UHGV virus genome: UHGV-0356621 | Origin: a virus | Direction: 5' to 3' (one strand) | Length of the DNA: 43,895 bases | Part shown: one piece after another, positions 1 to 43,895 of the stretch | Layout: the number at the start of each line of letters is the position of its first letter | How positions within the stretch are numbered: the first letter of the stretch is position 1 | The notes under the pieces: model-generated | What the model saw: only the letters and a program-made list of their open reading frames with translations | What the model was told of the DNA's origin: nothing | The model's database searches: none | Made by a program: the position numbers and the translations under genes

Positions 1-166
1 TTTATTAGAAATTTGCACTTAAATCAAAAAGTTACGGACAATCCAACCACCAATCAATAAATTAAAGGGCACATTAAAGTACACAATATTTGTGCCCTTC
101 TCTGTTTCTTTCCCGTTATCAGCTAGCTGGAAACTTTTTATACAGAGTTGAGAGCCCTACTCCATA
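1..166. repeat. Terminal direct repeat, copy 1; matches 43730..43895 with 2 mismatches (positions 16 and 87)
   Basis: Direct comparison of the two window ends; both copies are cut by the window edge so the true repeat may be longer. Contains the invertase 3' end and a downstream hairpin AAGGGCAC-N19-GTGCCCTT. Confidence 0.9.
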
Positions 167-2458: not shown

Positions 2459-2761
2459 TTAAGCCCAGACGCGAGCCAGTGTTTTCGGTGCAACCACAAA
2501 GTCGTTCAGCCCGGATAAATCGAGCGAGTCATTCATGACCCGCAAATTGGCGTGATAGCCGGGTTCGGTGGTGTACTTGATAACTTCGTTTTCCTCGCCG
2601 GAATTGATAACTTCAGCAGGAACAGTGATAACGCCGACGATATCCAGGCTGATATCAGGGTGATAAAAACCACCCTGTCCCTCATCATCCACAAACCCCG
2701 CCGCGATTAATTGCGTGCGCATTTGGTTGGCGTCATTAAAGCGCAGATATAAGTCTCTCAT
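2459..2761 (-). CDS. Hypothetical tail-fibre-associated protein
   Basis: 100-aa ORF between the two fibre genes; ATG overlaps the upstream stop (TAATG). No recognisable motif. Confidence 0.4.
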   Translation of the reverse strand: MRDLYLRFNDANQMRTQLIAAGFVDDEGQGGFYHPDISLDIVGVITVPAEVINSGEENEVIKYTTEPGYHANLRVMNDSLDLSGLNDFVVAPKTLARVWA

Positions 2762-4269
2762 TAGCGGAGTCCATTGATTTGGTTGGGAGTTAGCAGGCGG
2801 TGCCAGATACGGAAATTGCGAATGTGGTAAACAAACCTTACGGATGTAGTTTGGTTTATATTCCCTATATACGAAACGGATTGCGTGATGTCATTAGGAG
2901 TAACGCTATGAGAGTTTGAATTACCGTTGTAGTAGTTTGATATCCTGCCCCTTTCCGTTGTATGAACGAATACTCCGCTACTACCCTGGAGGCAAGGTAT
3001 ACTAATGTCCGTTGAACTTCGATACGATTTTACTGTGTTGTCGTTAACCCACCTGCAAACAATATCATTGCTTGGGCCTTGTACCTTAACAACTTCAATA
3101 TATCCATCGGAAGCCTGTAAATATTTAGGGAAAAATTCAAATGCCAAAGTTCTGTTGAATAGCGTTGCAAGAGTAGGGTATCCACAGTTTTCTTTCGGGA
3201 TTTGCCAGTAATCAGCAGCTCTTGTAACTGTAGTTGCGGCCGTCGGGATATAGGATGTTGGGAATGGGCTATCTTCTAATTGTGCGCCCCAGGCGTATAA
3301 ACCAGATACGCCATCTCCGGTATAGATTGTTGACACACCATTTGCTAATTGAATGCGAATAACTGTTCTCTGACTCGCTCCGGCTGTGAAAACCATCCAG
3401 ACACGGTATATGCCATTTCCGAAATCATCAAAACCACGATCAACAAATTGAGCACCATGGCCAGGCCCAACCCAGGCACCTGCAGCCGGGTCAAAGAAAA
3501 CGCCTGATGTACTACCAGAAGCAACACGCAGATATAAATTACGCGGGCTGGTGTGAGCTTTTACGAAAACCGAATAACAATAAGTTGTTCCTGCTGTTAA
3601 AATAATATTGCGGTCTTGTGCATAGTGTTCAATGGTAGGGGAGGTACTCTCAATTATAAGCGCCATCGTTTTATCGCCGCGAGGCGAGTCGCCGCTATTA
3701 TTCGTTGTGGTAACGTCTTTCCCTGCGTCCCACTGTTCTGAATATGTATACAGGTTCGTAATCTGATGCTCAATTAAAAGCCCCTCTTTCTCAAAGCGCG
3801 GCTCATTAATTGCCGCCGTCTTCAGCACACCAGATTTATCGATGTACGTCGCCGTCGTTGAGCGAGTGAACGTCATCGACTTAGTGGGCAGAGGGTAACT
3901 TGTGCCGGCCACTGTGATTGTGTCCGCCGGCGCGATCCCGGCCAGCAGGCGAAGGTCATCGGACAGCGGCGCCCAGACATCCGGGAACGGCGCATCAACG
4001 TAAACGGTGGCGGCAGCCGAGTTCGCAGCATCAGCTGCGCTCTGGGCTGCTGCAGCGGCTGAACTGGCTGCAGCCTGCGCCGACTGGCTCGCTGATTGCC
4101 CTATCGCAACTACGTCGGCTTGTAGTCCGGCAAGCGTTTTAGCTTTTTTGCCCGTTCTGGTCGTAACCTCCTTACTGCTGGAATTTACGACCTCATCCAG
4201 AGTCTGCTGGTTATCAGCAAAGTCACGCAAATCGCTGGATGGTACTGAGTTATTTGTATTGTAAGGCAT
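2761..4269 (-). CDS. Tail fibre / host-specificity protein, proximal part
   Basis: 502 aa with an Ala/Ser/Gln-rich N-terminal stretch typical of fibre shafts; sits between baseplate genes and the distal fibre gene; ATG verified with AGGAA RBS. Confidence 0.6.
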   Translation of the reverse strand: MPYNTNNSVPSSDLRDFADNQQTLDEVVNSSSKEVTTRTGKKAKTLAGLQADVVAIGQSASQSAQAAASSAAAAAQSAADAANSAAATVYVDAPFPDVWAPLSDDLRLLAGIAPADTITVAGTSYPLPTKSMTFTRSTTATYIDKSGVLKTAAINEPRFEKEGLLIEHQITNLYTYSEQWDAGKDVTTTNNSGDSPRGDKTMALIIESTSPTIEHYAQDRNIILTAGTTYCYSVFVKAHTSPRNLYLRVASGSTSGVFFDPAAGAWVGPGHGAQFVDRGFDDFGNGIYRVWMVFTAGASQRTVIRIQLANGVSTIYTGDGVSGLYAWGAQLEDSPFPTSYIPTAATTVTRAADYWQIPKENCGYPTLATLFNRTLAFEFFPKYLQASDGYIEVVKVQGPSNDIVCRWVNDNTVKSYRSSTDISIPCLQGSSGVFVHTTERGRISNYYNGNSNSHSVTPNDITQSVSYIGNINQTTSVRFVYHIRNFRIWHRLLTPNQINGLR

Positions 4270-13105: not shown

Positions 13106-14596
13106 TTAGCGAACCACATTGATGAGGACATCAGCGAAGTGAATGGCGCCCGCCAGTTTCGCCGCCACCTGAATCACCGGAGCTTTACGCGCTTCGCGAT
13201 CTGCCTGCGCCTGAGAGTTGAGGGGATTCGCGTAAACGTAATAACCCTTTGTCAGCGTGTCGCCCGGAGCTAACTGGCCGATACTTCCGCCGTTCCATAA
13301 CCCCGGAGCAACCAGCCCGTTATTCACTGACTGATCCATCGACTGCTCGATGTTCGTCACCAGGCGTGTCACACCGGCTTCGGTTTGTGGGATTTTGGTG
13401 GTGGAGGTGTAAAGCAGATTCCAGAGGTTGTTCTGGACATAGTTCTGTAGCCAGTCGAGACCGTGGCGCTCATCGAAGAAATCACCGTTGCACATCACGC
13501 CTTCCTGGATGATGGCGGTGTCGTTGGTGTAGCGTACGAACACGTTGCAGTTTTTGGCCTTCAGCGTGTCTGCCTGCTGCGCGGTGATCGTCTCTGCAGC
13601 GATGCCGGGCTCCTGCTTGAACTTCAGGGTAATGGTGGTGTTATTGCCCAGGAAGTTCACGGTAAATGCCCGGCCAAATGCTGACGCCGCGGCATAAGGC
13701 ACCTGGCTGTACTGACAGAAGGTGCGGCCGTAGCCCGCCGCTTTCAGCTTGTAGGCAATATCCGTGGTACTGGTTGCATCCAGAACCGCCGATGCGGAAG
13801 TGGTTACACCATACACGCGGGAGTCACTTGCAGAGCCAATCAGCGCGGAAACATCGATATGGTTCTGATCTGTCATCGCCGTGTCGGCAATTACCAGGCC
13901 ATACCAGTCGGCGGAGTAGTTCAGGGCGGTAGTGACCGACGGGAGAACTGAAGAGGACGCCGCCTGGCCGTTTACCACCGTGGGGTTGTGTGCTGAATCA
14001 ATGCCCAGTAGTGGAGCCAGGTCGGTGCCGGTTCCCGCAGCCGTCGGGATCCCGATAGCAGACGCCGCCCCGGTGGTGGTCGAGGTGATAACGAACTGGC
14101 TGGAGCCAGCCACCCAGGACACCGTAGCGCCGGTCATCTTCGCTGTAATCGCCGTCGCGACGCCAGCAAGGTCGGTAACCGCCGAGAGGTTAATCGCGGT
14201 GAGCGTTACAACTGTGCCGTTAATCGAAAGCTTCAGAGCGCCAGCTGTCACCGCTGTGAAGTTCGACAGCGCCTTTTCAGCCGTGGAGAGGACAGCGCCG
14301 GTCAACTTGCCTGATGAGGCAGAGACAGAGGTGCGGGCCAGTTTGCCGATGTACAGATCGCGAGGCTGCGGCGACTGCTGGAAGTAAAGATTAGCCGCTT
14401 TGTACTCTTCAGCACTGGTGCCAAAGTCCGTAGCGACGCTTTCAATGCTCTGATAGAGGCGCATCACCTCTGGTGCGGTGATCACGCTGGACGTGCCAAG
14501 CACCAGCAGCGCCCCAAAGTTGCGCCCGGCCGCCGCACGAACGGCGAGCGACACCTGCACGTTCACGACGCGCTGGACAGATAAGCCGTTAGGCAT
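13106..14596 (-). CDS. Tail sheath protein
   Basis: 496 aa, first gene of the tail block, followed by tube, chaperone and tape measure as in Mu/P2; ATG verified. Confidence 0.7.
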
Positions 14597-20362: not shown

Positions 20363-21680
20363 TCTCGATATCCTCGTCGGTAATGGATGCCCCGATACCG
20401 GTGACGTCAGAGTTTTCGCGCAGGTCGGTCATCGCCGCCTTACGCGTCATCAATCCGTCGCCCAGCGCGGTGCTGATCGCGTTGGTGGTGTTTACGGCCA
20501 CCGTTGAGCGGTCAACGTCAGACATTTGCCATAGCGGGTTAAACTCAAACGTGAAATCGTCCGGCAGCGGCTTACCGAGTTCCGAGCGGTGCATAATGTC
20601 CAGTATCCGGCGCATCGGCAGCCGTAAGCGGCGCTCCTGCAATGAGCTCACCCGGTCGTAATAGTTGGCGAGGTCTGCGTCACCAGTAGAGAAGCCTTTC
20701 GGGGATTGACCGAACAGGCGCACCAGCGGGATACCAACGGCACCGCTGATCTGCTCAGCGAACTGCGAAAGAATGTCATCCAGACCGCTGAAGCTGTACT
20801 GGTGGGTTTCGAACTTATCCCGCGAGTCCATGAGCGTCATACCTTCATTGCTCTGGAACTGGCGGATCAGGTCGATGTTCTTCAGCAGCGCCTCGAACGC
20901 CGGGCCGCCAAGCGCGATAAGCTCGCGCAGCTTCTCCACGCTGTAGGTGCGCAGATGCGCTTTGTAGACCAGCTGCGCCGCGCCGACAGTGGCGCTGTCG
21001 AACGCAGTAAGCCGATCCCAGATACGCTCTACAACCGACATTCCCCATTCGTTTTCGGTCATCTTCTGCTGGAATGGCAGCGTCACCCCGTCGAAGCGAA
21101 TCAGGCGGCTGTGATGGATGCGCCAGGCCGGGATGCCCGTTGCAGTGGTCACCACGTCGTAAAACTCAGGTTTGCCGAGATCTGGCCCCATCTCTTTAAT
21201 GCGGCGGGTCAGGACCGGGTTAATCATCCAGCGGTCGAGCGGGAGAATGCCCTTAAACTTGCCTTCTCCAATGGTTTCGAGCCGCAACGGGGTCATTGGT
21301 GCCTGCCCCTCAATCATGATGAAGCCGACCGCGCCGCCGTAGAGACGCGACCATTTCAGCACGTCGTTCAGCGCATCCCAGATCTGCAACTCATCCAGCT
21401 GCGCTTCGAGGGTGCCACGGCCTTTCGCGTCAATCTCCGAAGTGATGCGAATGCCTTTCCGGGTCATATCGTCCGGGATGGCGTCGACCGCTTCGCCAAT
21501 AACCCACGATCCGCGATATGACCATTCCACCAGCATGCGGTTGCGGCTGGTGAAGTTCGCCCGGTAGGTTGATGCTGAATGCTGGTTAGGCGTCTGCATC
21601 CCCACGCGGGCGACAAAGTTCTCATAGCCATCAGCGGTGGCCTGCGCCGTTCGCTGAGAGGCTTGCTTGTTTCGTGCCAT
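20211..21680 (-). CDS. Portal protein
   Basis: About 490 aa immediately downstream of the large terminase with an ATGA overlap; GGGAGG RBS before the ATG at 21680 (track start 21707 is TTG). Confidence 0.75.
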   Translation of the reverse strand: MARNKQASQRTAQATADGYENFVARVGMQTPNQHSASTYRANFTSRNRMLVEWSYRGSWVIGEAVDAIPDDMTRKGIRITSEIDAKGRGTLEAQLDELQIWDALNDVLKWSRLYGGAVGFIMIEGQAPMTPLRLETIGEGKFKGILPLDRWMINPVLTRRIKEMGPDLGKPEFYDVVTTATGIPAWRIHHSRLIRFDGVTLPFQQKMTENEWGMSVVERIWDRLTAFDSATVGAAQLVYKAHLRTYSVEKLRELIALGGPAFEALLKNIDLIRQFQSNEGMTLMDSRDKFETHQYSFSGLDDILSQFAEQISGAVGIPLVRLFGQSPKGFSTGDADLANYYDRVSSLQERRLRLPMRRILDIMHRSELGKPLPDDFTFEFNPLWQMSDVDRSTVAVNTTNAISTALGDGLMTRKAAMTDLRENSDVTGIGASITDEDIENAEDEAPPGIGELGDKPPEPTGGDPISNEPTADSAGGRGYRKWALRWFKR

Positions 21681-23122
21681 CAGGCTTGCCTCCCGAGCAA
21701 TTCCCAAATATCCATTGTTGTATCGGTCGGCGCGAACGCCATTATGAAAGCGTCGGCAATGTTAGGTGAGGGGATATCGCGCTTAGCCAAATCTTTCTTG
21801 CTTTCAACCATAACCCTACCGTTACGATCAAAGTCTCGGTGCGGGGTCGTCAGCTCAAGCTTTAGTTTCTCCAGGTGCGGGCACGATGAATCGATACTTA
21901 TCAACTCATCAACAGGATATTCCTCTCCATTTTTCACCGCGTTGAACGTATTACGAAAGCGATCAGCTACCAGCCACCATGCCTGGGCTTTCAGATTGGC
22001 AAAGAAGTCTTTATTCGGAATGCCGTTATATTCAGAATCTGGCTCGTTCACACCAGCGCCAGCATTGAAGCGTTGATAATTAACTGGTCGTGAATAAGGA
22101 TTTTCACGTCGTCTGTCTTCGTTAATTTCCGAGAATTTAGCACCAGCAGAAGCGCCAACACCAATGGAGTCATAAACGATATCAGCACTTCTCTCTGTGG
22201 CTGCCTGATATGCCCGCTGGCAGCTTTTAAGAAGCTCGTCTTCTTTTGCCTTCCATTCATCAGCCCAATACACAACGGAGCCATGACGATAAACATTGGA
22301 GCACTTATCCGCACCGCTATCGGCAACGTCGAAGCCTATTCGCTTTCGTCCGTTTGGCTCAAAACCAAGCACCTTATGGGCATCTATTGCAGCCTCAATC
22401 CACGAAAGTTTAATAATTGCCGCGTCATCATCAGATTCGGGAACCCCCATATAAACGTGGTCAAACCCCTCCGGATCACGACGCTTTGCAGCCGAGATAA
22501 CCTTAAGCATGGTGTCTGAGAGGAATGGGTTTTCGTCGTAATTGATTTTTCTCACCAACGTATCTTCTGGTGGATCAACAACGAAATTACGCCATACAAA
22601 GTCAGTCACCAGACCAGGGTTAAAAATAAACCAGCATTCAGATCCGCTTTTACGAATGGTTGGTTCCAGTATCTTCCACTGGTATTCCGTTAGTGCATGG
22701 GCTTCTTCAAGCCACAAAACGCTGATACCTTCCAGGGATTTAATTTCTTCGATATTGCGCCATAAACCGTAAAACACGAATTCTGAGCCAGTGACCCGGT
22801 TGATAATTTTATTATTCAGAATTCGGAAGCGATGCCGCAGCCCAAACCGTTCAATCTGTATTTTGAGCAGGGTATAAACCGACTCTTCGATTTTGTTCTG
22901 AATTTGACGTGCGCAACAGAAACGCAGGTTGTATTTATTTGCCAGAAAGACAGCAAACCCAGCAGCATCCCATGACTTTGACGATGAGCGCCCACCAAAA
23001 AGTACTTTATTTCGAGCCTGTGTCGTCCAGAAGTTCCTTAGAGCCGGATTCAGGGTCGGTTTGGATGTCAGAGTAGAAGTCATTAAGGTCACGATCTCCA
23101 TTACCGTCATCAACGCCAGCAT
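21680..23122 (-). CDS. terL: Terminase large subunit
   Basis: Walker A GGRSSSKS near the N-terminus, nuclease-type acidic residues towards the C-terminus, about 480 aa; several candidate ATGs (23122, 23110, 23101, 23083). Confidence 0.85.
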   Translation of the reverse strand: MLALMTVMEIVTLMTSTLTSKPTLNPALRNFWTTQARNKVLFGGRSSSKSWDAAGFAVFLANKYNLRFCCARQIQNKIEESVYTLLKIQIERFGLRHRFRILNNKIINRVTGSEFVFYGLWRNIEEIKSLEGISVLWLEEAHALTEYQWKILEPTIRKSGSECWFIFNPGLVTDFVWRNFVVDPPEDTLVRKINYDENPFLSDTMLKVISAAKRRDPEGFDHVYMGVPESDDDAAIIKLSWIEAAIDAHKVLGFEPNGRKRIGFDVADSGADKCSNVYRHGSVVYWADEWKAKEDELLKSCQRAYQAATERSADIVYDSIGVGASAGAKFSEINEDRRRENPYSRPVNYQRFNAGAGVNEPDSEYNGIPNKDFFANLKAQAWWLVADRFRNTFNAVKNGEEYPVDELISIDSSCPHLEKLKLELTTPHRDFDRNGRVMVESKKDLAKRDIPSPNIADAFIMAFAPTDTTMDIWELLGRQA

Positions 23123-23762
23123 CACGACGAAGGCGATCCGCTTCCAGAGACACTTTGTCAGTGGAGGCGAGCCGATGCTCTATAGATGCCTTTGTGAATT
23201 CCAGCGACTCAATGCGGGCCGTGTTACGGTGCATGGCCTTTTCAGCAGAGGAAATCAGCGAGTGGAGTTCCTTCGCTTTGTCATCATCGGCCAGCTCCAG
23301 CTCAGCCTGCCAGCGCCCGATATTCTCCGCCGCCGTCAGATTCGCCGCGCGCAGCCAGAACAACTCATCGTCGAGCGTGAGCAGCTTCGCGTCTTCGGTG
23401 ATTGCGTCAGAGAGCAGCATCCTGCGACCGTAGCCGCCGTGCTTCAATGCGTTCTGATTTCCGGGTCTGGAATTATAATGAGCGCGTTTCGTTTCTGGTG
23501 AGTTTGATGGTTTTGCGACTTCGCAGTTATCCACTAAGCCCGCTGGTGGCTTACTCTTTGCCACTTTCTCCTTTTGCGAATTCGCAGTTTTATTCGCACT
23601 TTTCTTTTGCGAATTCGCACTACCATTCGCAATTTTGATATAGCGCTTTGCAGTCGAGTAATTCAGTCCCTGCGCTTCGCACCATTCTTTGGGGGAAATG
23701 CCGGTTTTGGCATGTTCGGACAGGAACCGTTGCTGAAGCTCGCCCCAGTCCGGCTTTGCCAT
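23007..23762 (-). CDS. terS: Terminase small subunit
   Basis: N-terminal HTH (KEWCEAQGLNYSTAKRYI), central NQNALKHGGYG motif seen in small terminase subunits, sits directly upstream of terL; AGAGGAAA RBS. Confidence 0.6.
   Translation of the reverse strand: MAKPDWGELQQRFLSEHAKTGISPKEWCEAQGLNYSTAKRYIKIANGSANSQKKSANKTANSQKEKVAKSKPPAGLVDNCEVAKPSNSPETKRAHYNSRPGNQNALKHGGYGRRMLLSDAITEDAKLLTLDDELFWLRAANLTAAENIGRWQAELELADDDKAKELHSLISSAEKAMHRNTARIESLEFTKASIEHRLASTDKVSLEADRLRRDAGVDDGNGDRDLNDFYSDIQTDPESGSKELLDDTGSK
23565..23640. repeat. Short direct repeats TTGCGAATTCGCA (x2) plus ATTCGCA (x2) inside the 5' part of terS
   Basis: Read directly from the sequence; encodes the repetitive ANSQKKSANKTANSQ segment. 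Confidence 0.7.
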
Positions 23763-35302: not shown

Positions 35303-35862
35303 TTTACCCCATCGAAACGAAACATCGACAGCTGAGCGAAGTTAGCCAGCGGCGGACAGCAAGTCGCCTGCTTTTTTAACAAATCAGACTGAGTGACAGG
35401 CAAGCCGTAGCTCTCCTGGCAAAAAGAAATGGCACCCGATGGGATCGAGGTAAGCACTGAGTCCGTATGCGTACGGTAGGTGTAGAGGACCACGCTGCGA
35501 TGAGCTGATAAGTCACTCAATTTGAAGCGCTCCGATGATGGGGCGCTGATTCAACTTAGAGGAGTGATTCCAATGAAGAACTAAAGCGGACAGACCGCAG
35601 CCTAAAGGCAATGCAGCAGTAATGATGCCGCCCTGAGTCGCCGAATGGCGAGCCTGTGTAGTGATGGGTCAAGGTTCTTATATCAAAACAAGCTCCGGTA
35701 AAGCAGCGCGAACGCCAGACGCGCACCGGTTATGAGCGGCGATGAGCGACAAGGTCTCAAGGGCATGTGCGCGGCCACTGCGAGAGTGTGGCGAAGTTTA
35801 CCAGCAGCTCTTTGCGAGGGGCTGACGGCAAATCTACTCCACTTATTTAAAAGAGACGGTAT

Positions 35863-36036
35863 ATGGATAATCAGGATAATGAGTTAAGAAAGGTTGTTCA
35901 GGAACTTGCTGATGAAGAAGGCATCAGCTTTTCCGATGCCCTAGATGTTTCGATTAAAGCGCTGCGTTATGAGGTAGAGCGCAGAAAATCGTTTAACGGT
36001 GAAGCTGCTTGTGATGGCTCTGCAATTACTTCTTAG
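35863..36036 (+). CDS. Small acidic hypothetical protein (57 aa)
   Basis: ORF MDNQDNELRKVVQELADEEGISFSDALDVSIKALRYEVERRKSF...; first ORF downstream of the OL-like operators; 3' end overlaps the convergent gene by 11 bp. Below the track cutoff. Confidence 0.35.
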   Translation: MDNQDNELRKVVQELADEEGISFSDALDVSIKALRYEVERRKSFNGEAACDGSAITS

Positions 36037-36304
36037 CCAAGTACCAAGAGGTGTCTGCGGCTTCGGAAACCAGTACGTAATAGCTTTGCTTTACACTACT
36101 AGCTATACCTCTGACTTCCTCTCTAACGTTATATGCAGTTGATGTTTTTACGGTTGTATATTCAGCTGTTGGGAGGTTAAACCAAGTGCCATTACCATCC
36201 TGTATCTCACGCGAATAACCCTTTGCTTTCATCTTTTCATGAAGATTTTCATAGTCTTCAGAATCAGCGCCGCGCAACTCAACTCGAACAATATATCTTG
36301 CCAT
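36026..36304 (-). CDS. Hypothetical protein (92 aa), AT-rich gene antisense to the early-left operon
   Basis: ORF MARYIVRVELRGADSEDYENLHEKMKAKGY... with AGGAAT RBS; DNA is visibly AT-rich; the longer track ORF (to 36595) is an upstream extension. Confidence 0.5.
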   Translation of the reverse strand: MARYIVRVELRGADSEDYENLHEKMKAKGYSREIQDGNGTWFNLPTAEYTTVKTSTAYNVREEVRGIASSVKQSYYVLVSEAADTSWYLAKK

Positions 36305-36530
36305 AAGAAGATTCCTATATTGACTGTGGAATGAGCAACATATCAGTTTCCTTTGACTGTGGAAAGCAAAGGGACACGGGCCGGGCGTGGATAAAAATCC
36401 CGGCAATAACTGGAATGTTTTGTAGTGCAGTGAATTGCAGCTGCATCGACGGCAACCGGAAGATAAGCACCCGGCGCTGCACCACAAAGCATTTCTCCCG
36501 CATCCGCGGGTAACGACAGAGGGTAAAAGG

Positions 36531-36827
36531 ATGATCGACGACATCAAGCGCATCGACTCAATGATAAATGTGCTTCGAAATATGAAACAGGACATTAAGC
36601 GCCAGCAGAAACTAAGTGAAATAAACAGCTTAGACCTTACGCCAAAGCAAGCTCAAAAGCGCAATGCCGATGCTGGCTGGATTGCGATGGAACAGATTAA
36701 GCGCCGGCATGAGCTGCACGCTCTGTCAGTTGAGCTTGGGTTCGCTGAACGCCGGGAAAGTTATGCTCCATTTGAATTAACTGACGGGTGGCACCGATTC
36801 AACCACAAGCCGCGCGAACCTCAATAG
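36531..36827 (+). CDS. Hypothetical early protein
   Basis: 98 aa from the ATG at 36531 after an AAAAGG RBS. Confidence 0.4.
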   Translation: MIDDIKRIDSMINVLRNMKQDIKRQQKLSEINSLDLTPKQAQKRNADAGWIAMEQIKRRHELHALSVELGFAERRESYAPFELTDGWHRFNHKPREPQ

Positions 36828-36980
36828 CCGCCTAGCCAGCGGCTTTTTCATACCTGGAGTCATTTACGAGTGGCTTAGTTATGACAACCGGCGGCCATCC
36901 ATCGCCCATTGAAACACATAAAAGTGCGTTGAAGTCTTGTATTAACCGTTCCGTTCGCCGCGATAAGGCTAAGAGGATTT

Positions 36981-37241
36981 ATGAGCACTGTAAAGATGAT
37001 TGGCGCCAGTCCACTAACTGGAACAATTTTCGAAGGACGACTTAACCCAGTCAAAAGCTGCTGGGTTGGAAAGAAAACAGATGTTACCGATATGGTTCTG
37101 AGAGCTACCGCTGACCACCTCTACGTTGTGAAAAAGGAATATGCGTTCCCGTTACGAGACGGAAAGGTGGCTGTGTTGAGCATGCATATTTTCGATGAAT
37201 TGCCAGAGCGCTTCATTGGTGGCACGGAGCATGGCGAATGA
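36981..37241 (+). CDS. Hypothetical early protein
   Basis: 86 aa; stop overlaps the next ATG (ATGA). Confidence 0.4.
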   Translation: MSTVKMIGASPLTGTIFEGRLNPVKSCWVGKKTDVTDMVLRATADHLYVVKKEYAFPLRDGKVAVLSMHIFDELPERFIGGTEHGE

Positions 37242-37399
37242 TGACAGTCACCCACAACGGCAAGCAGTACACCGCCAAAAAGCTCAACGATAACGAGTGG
37301 CAGCTGACGTCCGTATCGGCACCGCGTGAAAAGCTGACGCTTAACCGCTGGCAGATGCATATGGCTGGCCTCCTGGTACAGGTAGAGGTGAAGGTATGA
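37238..37399 (+). CDS. Small hypothetical protein (53 aa)
   Basis: ATGA overlaps at both ends link it to the neighbouring ORFs; below the track cutoff. Confidence 0.35.
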   Translation: MMTVTHNGKQYTAKKLNDNEWQLTSVSAPREKLTLNRWQMHMAGLLVQVEVKV

Positions 37400-37602
37400 T
37401 TGGAATGCACTACGGCACCGCATCAGTGCCACGTAGCGAGGTTTTACCTGGCACAATGCTGCAACACCACGGCAAAACTTATCGCGCCTCTGCGAACGTT
37501 GAGAAAGGCCTGTACGCCTTCAACATCTTCGAAAAAACCATCATCAAAAGTGATTCCGTCGTTGTGCTGCTGAATGAGCGCGGCGAGCCGATGGTTCACT
37601 GA
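37396..37602 (+). CDS. Hypothetical early protein
   Basis: 68 aa, translationally coupled to the preceding small ORF. Confidence 0.35.
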   Translation: MIGMHYGTASVPRSEVLPGTMLQHHGKTYRASANVEKGLYAFNIFEKTIIKSDSVVVLLNERGEPMVH

Positions 37603-37678
37603 TACCAACCAACCTATTCAACCGATCGGCCTGGCTAAAAGCGGGCGGGATCTGCACATCCAAATTTCAGGAGAAACC

Positions 37679-38650
37679 ATGAGCGAAGTAACGGACTTAA
37701 CTGTCATCGAAATCAAGCCGGAACAGGCCCCAGTGCTTTACGTAGCGGGCGGCCTTGACGCGTACCTTGAGCAAATCCGCCAGGCTGTAAACGAAGTGCC
37801 GGACCTGTCCACGAAGAAAGGCCGTGACCGTGTTGCCTCTCTGGCAGCGCAGGTGTCCCGCAGCAAGACGGCAATCGAAAAGCCGGGCCGTGAGTACCTG
37901 AAGCGCCTGAAAGAGGCTGTACGCCCTGCCGAGGCCGAAATTAAGCGATTCGTTGATGCCTGCGACGAGCTGCGCGATGCGACCCGCCGCCCACTCACCG
38001 AATGGGAAGCCGAGCAGGAACGCATTAAGGCTGAAGAAGCCATGAACGCGATGCACGCCGAAGCGCTGGAGATGAACATCAGGTTCGATCAGGAGCTGGC
38101 TGCCAAGTTCGAAGCGGACCACGAAATGGCTCTACTGATGAACAAGGATTTTGACCGTGACCGCGAAGAGCAGCGCCGTCTGGCGGAACAGGCTCAGCGT
38201 GAACGTGATGAGCGGCTGAAACAGGAAGCGGCAGAACAAGCCCGCCGCGATGCCGAAGCGAAGCACAAAGCGGAGATTGAAGCCGCAGCGCGCCGTGAAG
38301 CTGAAGAGAAAGCACGTGCAGAGCTGGCTGAACGCCAGCGCGTCGAAGCGGAACAGCGTGCAGCTCGCGAGAAGCAGGAAGCAGAAGCCCGGGCAGAACG
38401 CGAAAAAGCCGCGGCGGTTGAAGCCGAGCGCCTGAAGGCCAAACAGGCCGAAGATGCCCGCCTGGCCGAAGAGAAGCGCCTCGCCGATGAGCAGGCAAAG
38501 CGTGAAGCTGACGTTAAGCACCGCAAGACGGTCGGCACCAACATCGTTAACGCGCTCACCAGCAACACCAGCTTAACCCGCGAACAGGCTATCGAAGTGC
38601 TTACCGCTCTGAAAGATGACCTCATCCCCTGCGCGAAAATTCATTACTGA
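37679..38650 (+). CDS. Hypothetical protein with long Glu/Ala/Arg-rich coiled coil
   Basis: 323 aa from the ATG at 37679 (GGAGAAACC RBS); conserved N-terminal domain then about 150 aa of EAEAKHKAEIEAAARREAEEKARAE-type repeats. Confidence 0.5.
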   Translation: MSEVTDLTVIEIKPEQAPVLYVAGGLDAYLEQIRQAVNEVPDLSTKKGRDRVASLAAQVSRSKTAIEKPGREYLKRLKEAVRPAEAEIKRFVDACDELRDATRRPLTEWEAEQERIKAEEAMNAMHAEALEMNIRFDQELAAKFEADHEMALLMNKDFDRDREEQRRLAEQAQRERDERLKQEAAEQARRDAEAKHKAEIEAAARREAEEKARAELAERQRVEAEQRAAREKQEAEARAEREKAAAVEAERLKAKQAEDARLAEEKRLADEQAKREADVKHRKTVGTNIVNALTSNTSLTREQAIEVLTALKDDLIPCAKIHY

Positions 38651-38657
38651 GGCAACC

Positions 38658-38942
38658 ATGAACGCATACCTCACTTACGACCGAATCGAAGATCGGCGCT
38701 GGGTTGAGCAGCAGCTCACCGACGAGAAAGAGAAGTGGATTGACGACCGGGCGCAGGAAATCATCGACATGATGCCGAAAGACCCGACCGGCATCTTTCA
38801 CTTCTCAGTACCAATCGATTCCAGCCCGTACGAAGGACTTCGCAGCGATAAAGCTTGCGAGGCCTATAACGACTTTGTTTCGGCAGTGGCCTATGCCCAG
38901 GCAGAACACGACTGGGAACACCGCACCGGCTGCCCGTTTTAA
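38658..38942 (+). CDS. Hypothetical protein
   Basis: 94 aa from the ATG at 38658; upstream of recT. Confidence 0.4.
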   Translation: MNAYLTYDRIEDRRWVEQQLTDEKEKWIDDRAQEIIDMMPKDPTGIFHFSVPIDSSPYEGLRSDKACEAYNDFVSAVAYAQAEHDWEHRTGCPF

Positions 38943-38960
38943 TTTTTGAGGGGATTAACG

Positions 38961-39806
38961 ATGACAAACGAATTAACAATCACCGCGACTTCGCTTCAGG
39001 AAAAAGGTATCGATGTCGCTACCTGGAGCGCGCTGAAGAACAGTATCTACCCTGGTGCCAAAGACGAATCGGTAATGATGGCGCTCGATTACTGCCGTGC
39101 CCGCCAGTTGGATCCACTGCTGAAGCCCGTTCACCTCGTGCCGATGAGCGTCAAAGACTCAAGAACGGGTAAAAGCGAATGGCGCGACGTGGTCATGCCG
39201 GGCATCGGGCTTTACCGCATTCAGGCGGACCGCTCCGGCGATTATGCCGGGGCCCGCGAACCAGAGTTCGGTCCAGACGTAACTCAGACGCTTACTGGTG
39301 TAGAGGTGACTTTCCCTCAGTGGTGCAAATACACCGTCTACAAGCGCATGCCCAGCGGGGAGATCGTCGAGTTCAGCGCCAAAGAATATTGGATTGAAAA
39401 CTACGCCACCGGCGGCCGCGACACCACGGCGCCGAACGCGATGTGGAAAAAGCGCCCATACGGACAGCTGGCGAAATGCGCAGAAGCCCAGGCGTTGCGT
39501 AAGGCATGGCCTGAGATTGGACAGCAGCCTACCGCCGAAGAAATGGAAGGCAAATCACTGGACGTTGATATCCGTGACGTCACGCCGCGCAGCACCACAG
39601 AAGCGCTTCCACCAGCAGCAAGCGAAGAAACGCTTCAGGCCATCACCGATCTCTTAACATCGCTGAATAAAGACTGGGAGCAAGACTTCCTCCCAGTGTG
39701 CAGCGACATCTTCAAACGACCAATTCTTGAGGCGTCAGACCTCACTGAAGAAGAGGCACAGAAAGGGTTCAACTTCCTTCAGAAAAAAGCTAAGGCGGCA
39801 GCATGA
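38961..39806 (+). CDS. recT: RecT-family single-strand annealing recombinase
   Basis: ALDYCRARQLDPLLKPVHLVP...KDSRTG...IGLYRIQADRSGDYAG resembles Rac RecT; ATG at 38961 with GAGGGGA RBS. Confidence 0.8.
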   Translation: MTNELTITATSLQEKGIDVATWSALKNSIYPGAKDESVMMALDYCRARQLDPLLKPVHLVPMSVKDSRTGKSEWRDVVMPGIGLYRIQADRSGDYAGAREPEFGPDVTQTLTGVEVTFPQWCKYTVYKRMPSGEIVEFSAKEYWIENYATGGRDTTAPNAMWKKRPYGQLAKCAEAQALRKAWPEIGQQPTAEEMEGKSLDVDIRDVTPRSTTEALPPAASEETLQAITDLLTSLNKDWEQDFLPVCSDIFKRPILEASDLTEEEAQKGFNFLQKKAKAAA

Positions 39807-40423
39807 ACGCCAATCCACTTATGCCCGGTGAAAAATACGGGCACTTAACCGTCAAAGAACACTCGCACATGCTGAGAGGTAGAAGGATGTATCTCTGCCT
39901 TTGTGTGTGCGGTAATTCCTGCTATAGGGCCGCAAATCAGCTCAAAAACAACTCAATAAGCAGCTGCGGATGCATGATAGGAAAAAACTCCACTCATGGC
40001 CAGCGCAATACCCGCGTTTACAGGATTTGGAGCGGGATGAAAAATCGCTGCACAAACCCAAAAAACAAAGACTTCGAAAAATACAGTCAGCGCGGTATCT
40101 GCGAAAGATGGCTGACGTTCGAGCTATTTCTTGAAGATATGGGGCCACCTCCTACGCCTAAGCATCAGCTAGATCGGAAGAACAATGAAGGCCCGTATTC
40201 AAAAGAAAATTGCAGATGGGCAACGGTTACCAAGCAGGCGGAAAACAGAAGCACATCGTTTTACTGGTTTGTTGATGGGTTGCGTTTTGAAAGCGCCGGA
40301 GCCGCCGCGAATCATTTTGGCGTGAAATCAGCAACCATCCACAAATGGTGTCACGGCTACAACAATAGAGGCATTAACATCCCGCCAAGAGCCAACTGCC
40401 GTAAGGAGAGGAAATATGGATAA
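39803..40423 (+). CDS. HNH-like homing endonuclease family protein
   Basis: Cys cluster, then [13 protein letters not shown]....F.KYSQRGI.ICERW..FE.F..DMG and [21 protein letters not shown], a pattern I associate with free-standing phage HNH-type endonucleases; inserted between recT and exo with ATGA coupling. Confidence 0.5.
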
Positions 40424-41102
40424 CACGTGGCTCATTAAATTTGAGCAAATATTTGGGCCAATTGCACAAATTGAGCAAGGCAGCGAGACATGGGCAAGGG
40501 CGAGACTCGGAGTTATTACTGCCTCTGACGCTCACAACGTCATTTCCAAGCCTCGATCTGGCACCAAATGGACAGACATGAAAATGTCCTATTTCCACAC
40601 GCTGCTCGCCGAGGTATGCACCGGTGTAGCGCCAGAGGTTAACGCCAAGGCGCTGGCCTGGGGCAAGCAGTACGAAGAAGACGCCCGCACCCTCTTCGAG
40701 TTCACCACTGACGTGAAAGTCACGGAGTCTCCGATCTTGTTCCGTGACGAGAGCATGCGCACCGCCTGCTCCCCTGACGGCCTGTGCAGTAACGGGTTCG
40801 GCCTTGAGCTTAAATGCCCGTTCACCTCCCGCGACTTCATGAAATTCCGCCTTGGCGGTTTCGAAGCCATCAAGTCTGCGTACATGGCCCAGGTGCAGTA
40901 CAGCATGTGGGTGACCGGGAAAGATGCCTGGTTTTTTGCCAACTACGACCCTCGCATGAAACGCGAAGGCATTCACCATGTCGTCGTTGAGCGGGATCCG
41001 CAGTACATGACCGATTTCAACGAAATGGTGCCGGAGTTCATTGAGAAGATGGACGAGGCGCTGGCGGAAATCGGCTTCACGTTCGGGGAGCAGTGGAAAT
41101 GA
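40416..41102 (+). CDS. exo: Lambda-type exonuclease (Red-alpha)
   Basis: Very close to lambda Exo across the protein ([57 protein letters not shown]..., C-terminus [19 protein letters not shown]); AAGGAGAGG RBS. Confidence 0.92.
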
Positions 41103-41527
41103 AACGCACACCCTTCTATCGCCGGCCAGGGCGAGCCGGGCAATTCTCGGGCCTCCGCGAGCGCGTTATCTGGATGATTCAGACGCGCGGTCGCCAGGTA
41201 ACCGGCAGCGAAATCGCTGAGAAGTTTGGCGTAACGCTGATTGAGTTTAACCGGGTAGCCAACGGCATCACCCGCGGTACCGGACAGATAGCCCAGGTAG
41301 TTGAGTCGGAAAAGTGGATCAACGAGGACGGCATCTGCGACCGGACTTTCGACCTGGTCACGAAGCCGAAGGTTGTGACGCCGCAGGGCAAATCGCGCCT
41401 GTTCACCCGGCGCGCCATTGAGCAATCGCAGGAAGGTAGACGGCAGGAGTGCATAGCCCGTGCCGCCCGCCGTAGCCGCCTGATTGCTCAGGGCCTCTAC
41501 ATCGACGAAATGGAGTCCATCCTATGA
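41099..41527 (+). CDS. Hypothetical protein
   Basis: 142 aa from the ATG at 41099 (track start is GTG), coupled to the exo stop. Confidence 0.4.
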
Positions 41528-41853
41528 CTCACGCTCACGACGACATCAGGGTTGGCGCGGTGCGCCTTCCCTGGCTCAAAGAGAAAAACGGATGGTTGCT
41601 GCCGTGGGGTGAAGTCGTTACCAACCCACTGAAGGCGCAACGACTGGCTGAAGAACTTAACGAAAAGCAGGTGGCAGCCCACCAGCGTGGGGCAAAAGTG
41701 GTGATCAGCAATTCTACCGCTCCGCGCGTAATTGAACTTTACGAACAGCACGGCTTCACGCTGCACCGCGTCAGTGCTCGCCGGGCTATATCCAGCAAAG
41801 GCAGTACCCGCGAAACAGCGAGTGATGTCGTAGCCACTTTGGGAGTGCAGTGA
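41524..41853 (+). CDS. Hypothetical protein
   Basis: 109 aa; ATGA overlap with the upstream gene. Confidence 0.4.
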   Translation: MTHAHDDIRVGAVRLPWLKEKNGWLLPWGEVVTNPLKAQRLAEELNEKQVAAHQRGAKVVISNSTAPRVIELYEQHGFTLHRVSARRAISSKGSTRETASDVVATLGVQ

Positions 41854-42095
41854 TGATGAAGCTGATTAATCGCAGTAAGCAATCACCTATTGGTCGCCGC
41901 GCTTGCGATGTTGCGCTGGCAGCTCACTTGCAAACATATGGCGACTATGGGCGAAGCAAGATGAAAGAGACTTATACGGTGAAGGTTGAAGGCGTGAAAG
42001 TCTGGGTGGAGGTGGTGAACCGAAAGGCGAGCTACGTGGCCACAGCGATGACCGGCATGCGCCGTCTCCGCTCCCTGCCCGGGCAGGTTGGTTGA
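41853..42095 (+). CDS. Hypothetical protein
   Basis: 80 aa from the ATG at 41853 with GGGAGTG RBS. Confidence 0.4.
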   Translation: MMKLINRSKQSPIGRRACDVALAAHLQTYGDYGRSKMKETYTVKVEGVKVWVEVVNRKASYVATAMTGMRRLRSLPGQVG

Positions 42096-42136
42096 AAAAG
42101 ATTTTGAATGGCCCGAACGGGCAACTGGAGAGAGCT

Positions 42137-42334
42137 ATGGATGATATTTTGGTAACGTCAGACCTGACCAGTCGCTACAAAATTTCACGCAAAACCCTTT
42201 GGTCATGGCAAAGTGCAGACACAATGCCTCGGGGCTTCGTATGCCCGTTCCCACCCCCTGACTGGCCCGGCAACCCTAACCGCTGGCGCTCTGAGTCAAT
42301 CAAAGAGTGGGAGGATAAAAAGAAGATAAATTAA
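42137..42334 (+). CDS. xis: AlpA-family excisionase / transcriptional regulator
   Basis: [24 protein letters not shown]...[10 protein letters not shown] fits the AlpA/Xis winged-helix pattern; ATG at 42137 after GGAGAGAG; convergent with int. Confidence 0.6.
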
Positions 42335-43524
42335 CTGAAGGGCTCTCCGATGATCTCTTCAAGATGGCTCTGCCAAACGCGGAGCCAGTGTTTCTGATCA
42401 TCGATATAGTCATGAAGGTTGTAATGCGCCATAACCCCCACCATCTGATGCCCGAGCAGCTTTTCAATTACGTGCGGCGGGCAACCTAACTCAGAGAGAT
42501 TTGTGGCTATCGTCCGCCTCATATCATGAAGCGACCACTCTGCCATACCTGTTCCATTCCAAATAGAACGGGCGTAATTGGATGCCACAGGTGAATGAAC
42601 GGGCGAATCTTTGATCCCGCCATCAATTTTACGTTGTGAAGTCACCAGGTGATTGGTGTTTATTTTCTTGAGGTGATTTCTGACCAGGTTAACGGCGGCG
42701 TCTGAGAGTCCCCTTCTAATATGTACCCGAGTTTTATAACTGCCCGCAGGCACGACCCACTCATTATCATCCAATCGAAACCATGATCTCTCACTAAGTC
42801 GAATCTCAGCCGTACGGCATCCGGTAAGCATAATAAATTTCACCAGGAAAACGGACTCTATCGACATATGGCTTTTCAACCACTGATAGATTTTGCGCAG
42901 ATCGTCATCGTCCATCCTGCGAGTTCTCTTTTTAGGCTTTTGCCCGACATCAGATGGCAGTAATCCCTCGAGTGGGTTTGAGGCGATCACACTTCTGTTA
43001 ACGCAGAACCTAAACGCCCGTTTGCACAGCGAAAGCATGTAATGAGCCATCACCCTGCTTTCTATAGAATCGAAGACGTTGATCCAGTGCATTTTCGCTG
43101 TGTTATCGACTTTGACATTCTTCATCGGTTCGGCGATATGTTTCTCAAACACCTGGCGATAGTAATCGACTTTAACTAGCCCGTTAGCGATACAGTGCCT
43201 TTCAATCCAGTAATTGAACGCTTCGGCAACGGACATCGCTTCCTGTCGGGTCTGCTTATCCAGCTTCACCTGCTCTCGCGGATCCAGTCCCTCAGTTAAC
43301 CAGTTTCTGAATTGTTGGCGACGCTCTCTTGCCTGGGTGATACTCATTGCAGGATAATCACCAACATTGAGTTTTACCGCTTTACCGGCCCAGCGATACC
43401 GATAGAAAAATGATATTTTTCCGGCCTGGCTGATTCTGGCGTTGAGCCCGTGCGAATCAGAAATAATCTCGATATCATCTCTTTTCTTGCCGAGCGCCTT
43501 CCTGAGCTTTGTGTCGGTGATCAT
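42331..43524 (-). CDS. int: Tyrosine integrase, P4-like family
   Basis: N-terminus [10 protein letters not shown]...[29 protein letters not shown] as in P4-type integrases; C-terminal catalytic region ...HDMRRT...LLGH...Y; start at 43524 is one of several possible. Confidence 0.85.
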
Positions 43525-43729
43525 TGAATGGGTACACATTTTTGTTTTTGGGTACACAAAAGTGTACACAAAGTTGCCCACTCAAAGCTACACGCAATGT
43601 AACACTAGTTCGCAGAGTGTTATGGTTTACATCCTTGAAAGCCTGCTGGATAAGGGTTTAGCGTAACAGAACGTTTTTACGCGGAATTGTTCGTAATATG
43701 CCAAATGACAATTTAAGAAAGTGTTCTAA

Positions 43730-43895
43730 TTTATTAGAAATTTGAACTTAAATCAAAAAGTTACGGACAATCCAACCACCAATCAATAAATTAAAGGGCA
43801 CATTAAAGTACACAAGATTTGTGCCCTTCTCTGTTTCTTTCCCGTTATCAGCTAGCTGGAAACTTTTTATACAGAGTTGAGAGCCCTACTCCATA
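43730..43895. repeat. Terminal direct repeat, copy 2; matches 1..166
   Basis: 164/166 identical to the window start; includes a truncated copy of the invertase 3' end running off the window edge. Confidence 0.9.

Follow-up and report, generated by a model that had tools for sequence, protein, structure and literature searches.

Why should a viral genome sequence with an integrase gene near one end and an invertase gene at the other begin and end with the same 166 bp? The UHGV virus genome UHGV-0356621 raises this question. Its sequence of 43,895 nucleotides, which we analysed over its whole length and refer to as the window, carries the same stretch at both of its ends. An ungapped alignment of the two copies matches at 164 of 166 positions, the exceptions being position 16 (C in the left copy, A in the right) and position 87 (T in the left copy, G in the right). 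This agrees with a sequence-only reading made earlier, which had described the ends as identical apart from these two substitutions and as cut by the window edges. Both copies do reach those edges, which hide their true extent. In a repeat search of the window the pair was the sole direct repeat of at least 40 nt, with a spacing of 43,729, and a chance origin of the pair is excluded.

Composition of the repeat and its attachment module

Judged from its sequence, the 166-bp repeat is the P' arm of a phi80-type attP and continues into the invertase gene pin, of which it takes in the final 48 nt (Table 1). The left copy shows 98.8–99.4% identity to the P' arm of phi80, HK225, mEp237, mEpX1 and E. 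coli lysogens, and the repeat begins 2 bp past the att core. The pin stop codon lies at 119–121, and the portion of pin inside the repeat (119–166) holds the last 15 sense codons and the stop, its translation ending in YGVGLSTLYKKFPAS. The earlier reading had correctly placed the end of the invertase here, although its count of 16 codons before the stop was one too many. The core itself, ATTTAAGAAAGTGTTCT, has a single match in the window, even with two mismatches allowed. It is the stretch common to the left flank of attL and the right flank of attR in E. coli G3/10, and is annotated as attP in HK225; the corresponding phi80 annotation (JX871397) is shifted by 3 bp.

Table 1. Features of the att region and of the phage backbone, in window coordinates
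Feature	Position	Strand	Remarks
Left repeat copy	1..166		P' arm of phi80-type attP, pin terminator and pin 3' end; alleles C16, C43, T87
IHF-consensus site AATCAAAAAGTTA in P' arm	22..34	+	IHF site annotated at the equivalent position in phi80 JX871397
Terminator-like hairpin downstream of pin	64..100	-	10-bp GC-rich stem, then U-rich run; -14.8 kcal/mol
pin, serine DNA invertase, 182 aa	119..667	-	Pfam Resolvase (E=7.8e-38), HTH_7
DUF3383 sheath	13106-14596		structural block
Terminase_3 large terminase	21680-23125		Pfam
xis (excisionase), 65 aa	42137..42334	+	overlaps int 3' end; matches xis position in phi80 and HK225 records
int, phi80-type tyrosine integrase, 402 aa	42331..43539	-	Pfam Arm-DNA-bind_3 (E=1.5e-18), Phage_integrase (E=8e-17)
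Three GTACACA motifs in P arm	43532..43570	+	candidate Int arm-type binding sites; overlap int start region
P arm of attP, including int promoter region	43540..43710		100% identity to int-proximal attR side of lysogens up to 43727
att core, 17 bp, ATTTAAGAAAGTGTTCT	43711..43727		crossover region; identical to host yciI 3' end
Right repeat copy	43730..43895		second P' arm and pin 3' end, joined to P arm and core; alleles A16, C43, G87

The P and P' arms are contiguous across the core: positions 42300–43895 are colinear over their full length with four phage genomes, those of phi80, HK225, mEp237 and mEpX1 (100% coverage, 99.5–99.8% identity). The right end of the window has the unbroken attP arrangement of phi80-family phages, and the earlier proposal that the sequence continues from the integrase upstream region directly into the invertase stands. 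In the phi80 record, pI -10 and -35 signals are annotated in the P arm region. In addition to the tabulated IHF-consensus site, a second match to the consensus is present at 52–64, and the counterparts of the two sites in the right copy lie at 43751–43763 and 43781–43793. The pattern WATCAANNNNTTR has six matches in the window against 1.3 expected, with four of the six inside the two repeat copies.

The GTACACA heptamers are candidates for Int arm-type binding sites, since all five occurrences in the 43.9-kb window fall in the att region, three in the P arm and one in each P' copy. The two P' motifs (79–85 in the left copy, 43808–43814 in the right) sit in the loop of the pin terminator hairpin. 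The fold predicted for this hairpin is the same for both alleles; mismatch site 87 also lies in the loop, 2 nt from the P' motif. All parts of the attP module are fully accounted for by the well-known phi80-type system, which leaves no new element, and the biology is that already known for the attachment of an ordinary phi80-type phage.

The genes on either side of the junction belong to the same system. The integrase is 99.9% identical to that of phi80 lysogens such as DH5alpha and DH10B, and the exact protein is present in phi80 and in many E. coli contigs, where its gene adjoins kch. An alternative start, at an upstream GTG at 43581, would extend it to 416 aa. At the DNA level, pin is 95–99% identical to pinL of phi80 and to the invertases of HK225 and mEp237. 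Positions 119–2800 of the window contain no inverted-repeat pair flanking the tail-fibre and assembly genes by pin and no gix/hix-like site, and pin seemingly has no segment to invert.

The module in phage genomes and E. coli chromosomes

We compared the repeat and its surroundings with 5426 complete E. coli genomes. The 166 bp occur at 121 places in 119 of these genomes (median 1 per genome), and they directly follow the yciI stop codon in all loci that were read (ECCRA-119, EcPF16, G3/10 and KL53). The comparison of the 166 bp with host genomes, which the earlier reading had proposed as a check, identifies the target as the yciI 3' end. The integrase gene is present in 176 of the 5426 genomes, phi80dlac laboratory strains among them. 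An unbroken P-core-P' junction was found in none of the 5426, the best coverage being 90% and ending at the core. On the int side, identity between lysogens and the window stops at 43727–43730 and gives way to the kch side, while the pin side adjoins yciI. Read base by base toward kch, the lysogen junctions run ...GTGTTCT up to 43727 and continue as GAATAGAG... These junctions agree with the kch-int and pinL-tonB junctions described for phi80 lysogens at the yciI locus (PMC5727415). The expectation that a single prophage would be split at attP, with host DNA on both sides, is thus borne out by the lysogens, which show kch on the int side and yciI on the pin side. The intact attP junction that ends the window is not what a single lysogen contains.

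Outside complete E. coli genomes, the unbroken junction was found only in phage genomes and in one phage contig from a gut metagenome. A scan of IMG/VR for the attP-junction pattern returned only HK225, mEp237 and mEpX1, and the GTDB species representatives gave no match to it. Among metagenome contigs there was one match, OWZX01000017 from human gut, a lambdoid phi80-like phage with an unrelated backbone. PLSDB contained only a 479-bp int fragment, on an Enterobacter plasmid.

Reading of the lysogen loci yielded further observations. Integration leaves yciI intact and swaps its stop codon, which is TAA on the phage P' side (attL) and TGA on the native attR/attB side; the swap lies at 43727–43729 in the window, and at 1497–1499 and 44532–44534 in locus L026. 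Decayed copies of the module also occur. EcPF16 carries a degraded phi80-type left end beside yciI, with pin split by IS3 and a T-to-C change within the att core (locus L002, 6001–8000), and in KL53 the part left beside yciI amounts to some 200 bp of P' and pin 3' end, followed by unrelated tail genes (locus L028, 4941–5400). P' remnants without int are present in at most 3 of the 5426 E. coli genomes.

As a whole, the phage is a mosaic, in which the phi80 int-xis-attP-pin module is combined with a lambdoid early region (RecT, Gam, KilR, N-like) and a contractile-tail structural block. The structural block is non-lambdoid and related to Citrobacter phage Omnitron and Salmonella phage SEN34; over the first 20 kb, the part compared with phage records, the best record covers at most 59%. 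The window shares with phi80 (JX871397), HK225, mEp237 and mEpX1 the order xis, int, P arm, 17-bp core, P' arm with IHF site and pin, as well as 95–99% identity over 1–745 and the target at the yciI 3' end between tonB and kch. In contrast, the remainder of the phage is of the contractile-tail type and not phi80-like, and the P' arm of the window carries a private allele, C43. Taken over its whole length, the window comes closest to a prophage that sits at yciI in E. coli G3/10 (NZ_CP060075.1, 2829999–2873036). Some 66% of the window's left half and some 49% of its right half are covered by this prophage at roughly 94–95% identity; att module and orientation are the same and the size is similar. 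Unlike the window, the G3/10 prophage is integrated as a single copy, flanked by yciI at its pin end and by kch at its int end, and it has no P-core-P' junction. The two also differ beside pin, where G3/10 has opposite-strand alternative tail-fibre genes that are absent from the window.

The two alleles and the window boundaries

Whether the two mismatches are real bears directly on the origin of the repeat. The right-hand A16 is the natural allele of HK225, and G87 was seen nowhere else among the sequences compared. The C43 common to both copies occurs at none of the 121 E. coli places and in none of the four phages, and scans of IMG/VR and of the GTDB representatives did not find it either. 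Because both P' copies share this private allele, they are close kin. The mismatches look real, and the two copies look like distinct alleles rather than noise. The sequence-only reading had taken the mismatches to argue against a simple assembly overlap, and in this it is supported both by the natural occurrence of A16 and by an independent read-derived assembly that breaks at site 16. A plain self-overlap of one circular molecule does not suffice to put C16 and T87 next to the structural genes and A16 and G87 behind the P arm; this takes two P'-pin sequences that are physically distinct.

The independent assembly consists of Logan contigs, built from reads with k=31; no 31-mer is used more than once, and k-mers with a single occurrence are dropped. 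Exact phage proteins were found only in short Logan contigs of SRR6504918 and of SRR33960981 (L024), and the exact-protein look-ups gave no long host-linked contig. SRR6504918 is an independent run, which may be neither an isolate nor the window's own source, and a literature search for it gave no hits. Two of its contigs match the window at 100% identity, L027 over 35704–43740 (8037 bp) and L008 over 17–2858 (2842 bp). L027 crosses the core from the P arm and takes in the first 11 nt of P', so that reads bridge an attP-type junction. It ends at the last 31-mer containing base -19, the first difference between the P arm (A) and yciI (C), which is the point where a yciI-core-P' (attL) path would merge. 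At -2, the branching point expected of a P-core-kch (attR) path, the contig continues unbroken. L008, for its part, starts at 17, directly after mismatch site 16, and passes site 87 without a break, as expected if the bubble was collapsed or if G87 is absent from SRR6504918. Taken together, the contigs point to two incoming contexts (yciI and the P arm) and to two alleles at site 16; an ordinary attR for this P arm seems to be missing.

At its other end, the pin-side contig of SRR6504918 stops at window position 2858, within an ORF at 2761–4269, and SRR33960981 reads through this point. There is a hint here that a second sequence in the SRR6504918 sample may share the pin/tail-fibre end for about 2.8 kb.

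The positions at which the window begins and ends were considered as well. Base 1 is the first base after the yciI stop codon as found in attL, and the probability that an arbitrary opening of a 43.7-kb circle would fall at this base is about 1 in 44,000. This start suggests that a prophage was cut from a host contig at a gene boundary. The right edge is not an ORF boundary; it coincides with a codon boundary of pin, the next base being a wobble position. An end at 166 would need an assembler k-mer of 79, whereas the usual 77 gives 87+77=164, and among 14 related sequences we found no known polymorphism at position 167 that would explain it.

Explanations for the terminal repeat

The explanation we favour, with a probability of roughly 0.55, is a tandem-type array in which a second P'-pin module of phi80 type comes after a prophage at yciI. 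The window comprises one complete unit (43,729 bp) from a temperate phage of mosaic make-up that uses the phi80 int-xis-attP-pin module. On its left this unit begins 2 bp past the att core, exactly behind the stop codon that yciI receives from the phage in attL, and the window ends 166 bp beyond the unbroken P-core-P' junction. The left edge would result from excising the prophage from a host contig where the yciI gene ends, and the right-hand copy would belong to a second, physically distinct P'-pin module lying downstream. This second module could be a closely related prophage or, more likely, a remnant without an int-P-core-kch junction of its own, the remnant being favoured because the attR branch is missing. 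We hypothesize that such a heterologous tandem array could have formed beside a resident element, either by Int-mediated recombination of attP with attL or by homologous recombination in pin/P'. The stop at 166 may reflect an assembly that was unable to pass the duplicated pin region.

Among tandem-type arrangements, we think a second module that is not identical more likely than a dimer of one and the same phage. The existence of degraded P'-pin remnants beside yciI, in EcPF16 and KL53, supports the idea of a remnant. The prior for a tandem array is nevertheless low, because none of the 5426 genomes has a P-core-P' junction and remnants occur in at most three. The shared C43 also counts against a tandem array, in that it makes the two copies very close kin and would be explained equally well by a population of one phage. 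A more specific version, which we put forward tentatively and with clearly less than even odds, is that a mosaic myovirus with a phi80 att module integrated beside a decayed relative, its attP recombining with the attL (yciI-core-P') of a remnant that had lost the integrase end.

Chief among the alternatives is a circular form, excised, replicating or virion-derived, that was assembled past its own start, the mismatches stemming from two co-existing haplotypes of one phage or from terminal errors in the contig consensus. The phage genome is complete and its attP intact, as this would require, and P-core-P' junctions are otherwise confined to phage genomes and the single gut-metagenome phage contig, with none on the E. 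coli chromosomes; a C43 common to both copies is likewise what one lineage should show. We nonetheless consider this origin unlikely, though it deserves serious weight. It makes the start exactly one base past the yciI stop a coincidence of about 1 in 44,000, and De Bruijn overlaps are exact and k bases long, unlike 166 bp with two substitutions. Random errors would have about a 1% chance of producing the match of A16 to a natural allele, and the independent assembly branches at site 16, with an attL-like merging path and no attR-like branch. An exact circular-contig overlap can be rejected on the 164/166 match, the start at a host-gene boundary and the real branch at site 16. In the same way, the window resembles circular viral contigs of the "DTR" type in being of genome length and carrying one sequence at both ends, but the overlaps of such contigs are exact, of k-mer length and placed arbitrarily, whereas here the repeat has two substitutions, a length of 166 and a start at a host-gene boundary. 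A related scenario has the assembler join, through their shared pin, a free circular phage and a separate resident yciI-core-P'-pin remnant; the chimeric path would lead from the yciI side into the remnant P', through the phage and on to the phage's own P'. It predicts yciI-core-P' and P-core-P' junctions without P-core-kch, as in the Logan contigs, and it accounts for two P' alleles and for a contig that stops on re-entering shared sequence. We rate it as improbable, as a remnant host, rare in itself (at most 3 of 5426), would have to coincide with an actively replicating, non-integrated temperate phage, and remnant and phage alike would have to carry the private C43.

Tandem double lysogens are familiar in lambdoid phages: polylysogens of lambda and of phi80 have an internal attP-like junction and an outer attL, and in the classical case consist of repeats of one phage with a normal attR at the end. 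A tandem dimer of a single prophage at yciI, the two differences being recent mutations, would have this layout, with P-core-P' between the units, and the shared private C43 fits a single lineage. Such a dimer is very improbable here. A recent duplication should show fewer than two substitutions in 166 bp, the P-arm contig of SRR6504918 is unbranched at the core although a dimer must also hold P-core-kch, and none of the 176 integrase-bearing complete genomes shows one. The window departs from classical polylysogens in the same two respects, its second P' differing at 2 of 166 positions and the read-derived graph having no attR for this P arm. The remaining proposals have next to no probability. 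Direct repeats at both ends of a prophage-sized window, with an integrase at one end, might recall an attL/attR duplication in which a long segment of att identity flanks a single prophage, and the earlier reading had listed a long att duplication as an option. That option falls, as the 17-bp core at 43711–43727 lies outside the repeat, 2 bp away, and is present once; past the core, the int side of lysogens is host DNA (GAATAGAG...), and the 166 bp are phage DNA, found once per lysogen genome. Equally negligible is a physical direct terminal repeat of packaged phage DNA. A phage-sized sequence with the same ends and a large terminase of the Terminase_3 type would be compatible with it, and the G3/10 homologue is annotated as PBSX family, from which headful packaging with terminal redundancy may be supposed. 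The boundaries of the repeat are, however, those of the att core and the yciI stop and not of a packaging site, the copies differ at two sites, and the terminase genes lie in mid-window at about 21.7–23.7 kb, some 21 kb from the repeat; headful redundancy would be permuted and kb-sized rather than a fixed 166 bp. The earlier suggestion of a terminally redundant genome, taken in this physical sense, is dismissed on the same grounds.

In practical terms, a complete phage unit of 43,729 bp is present in the window, and its phi80-type attP is intact. The value of this result lies mainly in bookkeeping: neither an att duplication nor the termini of a genome should be read into the terminal repeat. 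If the tandem reading is true, the window would offer a natural case of a phage landing beside a related remnant at yciI, with a modest bearing on the origin of prophage arrays and mosaic phages and without a new mechanism. Should the phage indeed have landed beside a remnant, the internal junction of the heterologous array would be a fully functional attP-like site. Occupied or "scarred" attachment sites would then stay usable as landing pads, and arrays could be excised or exchanged as units.

A separate observation concerns the gut-metagenome contig OWZX01000017, from a lambdoid phage of the phi80 family with a J-protein. Its unbroken int-attP-pin junction shows that the module circulates on different gut phage backbones.
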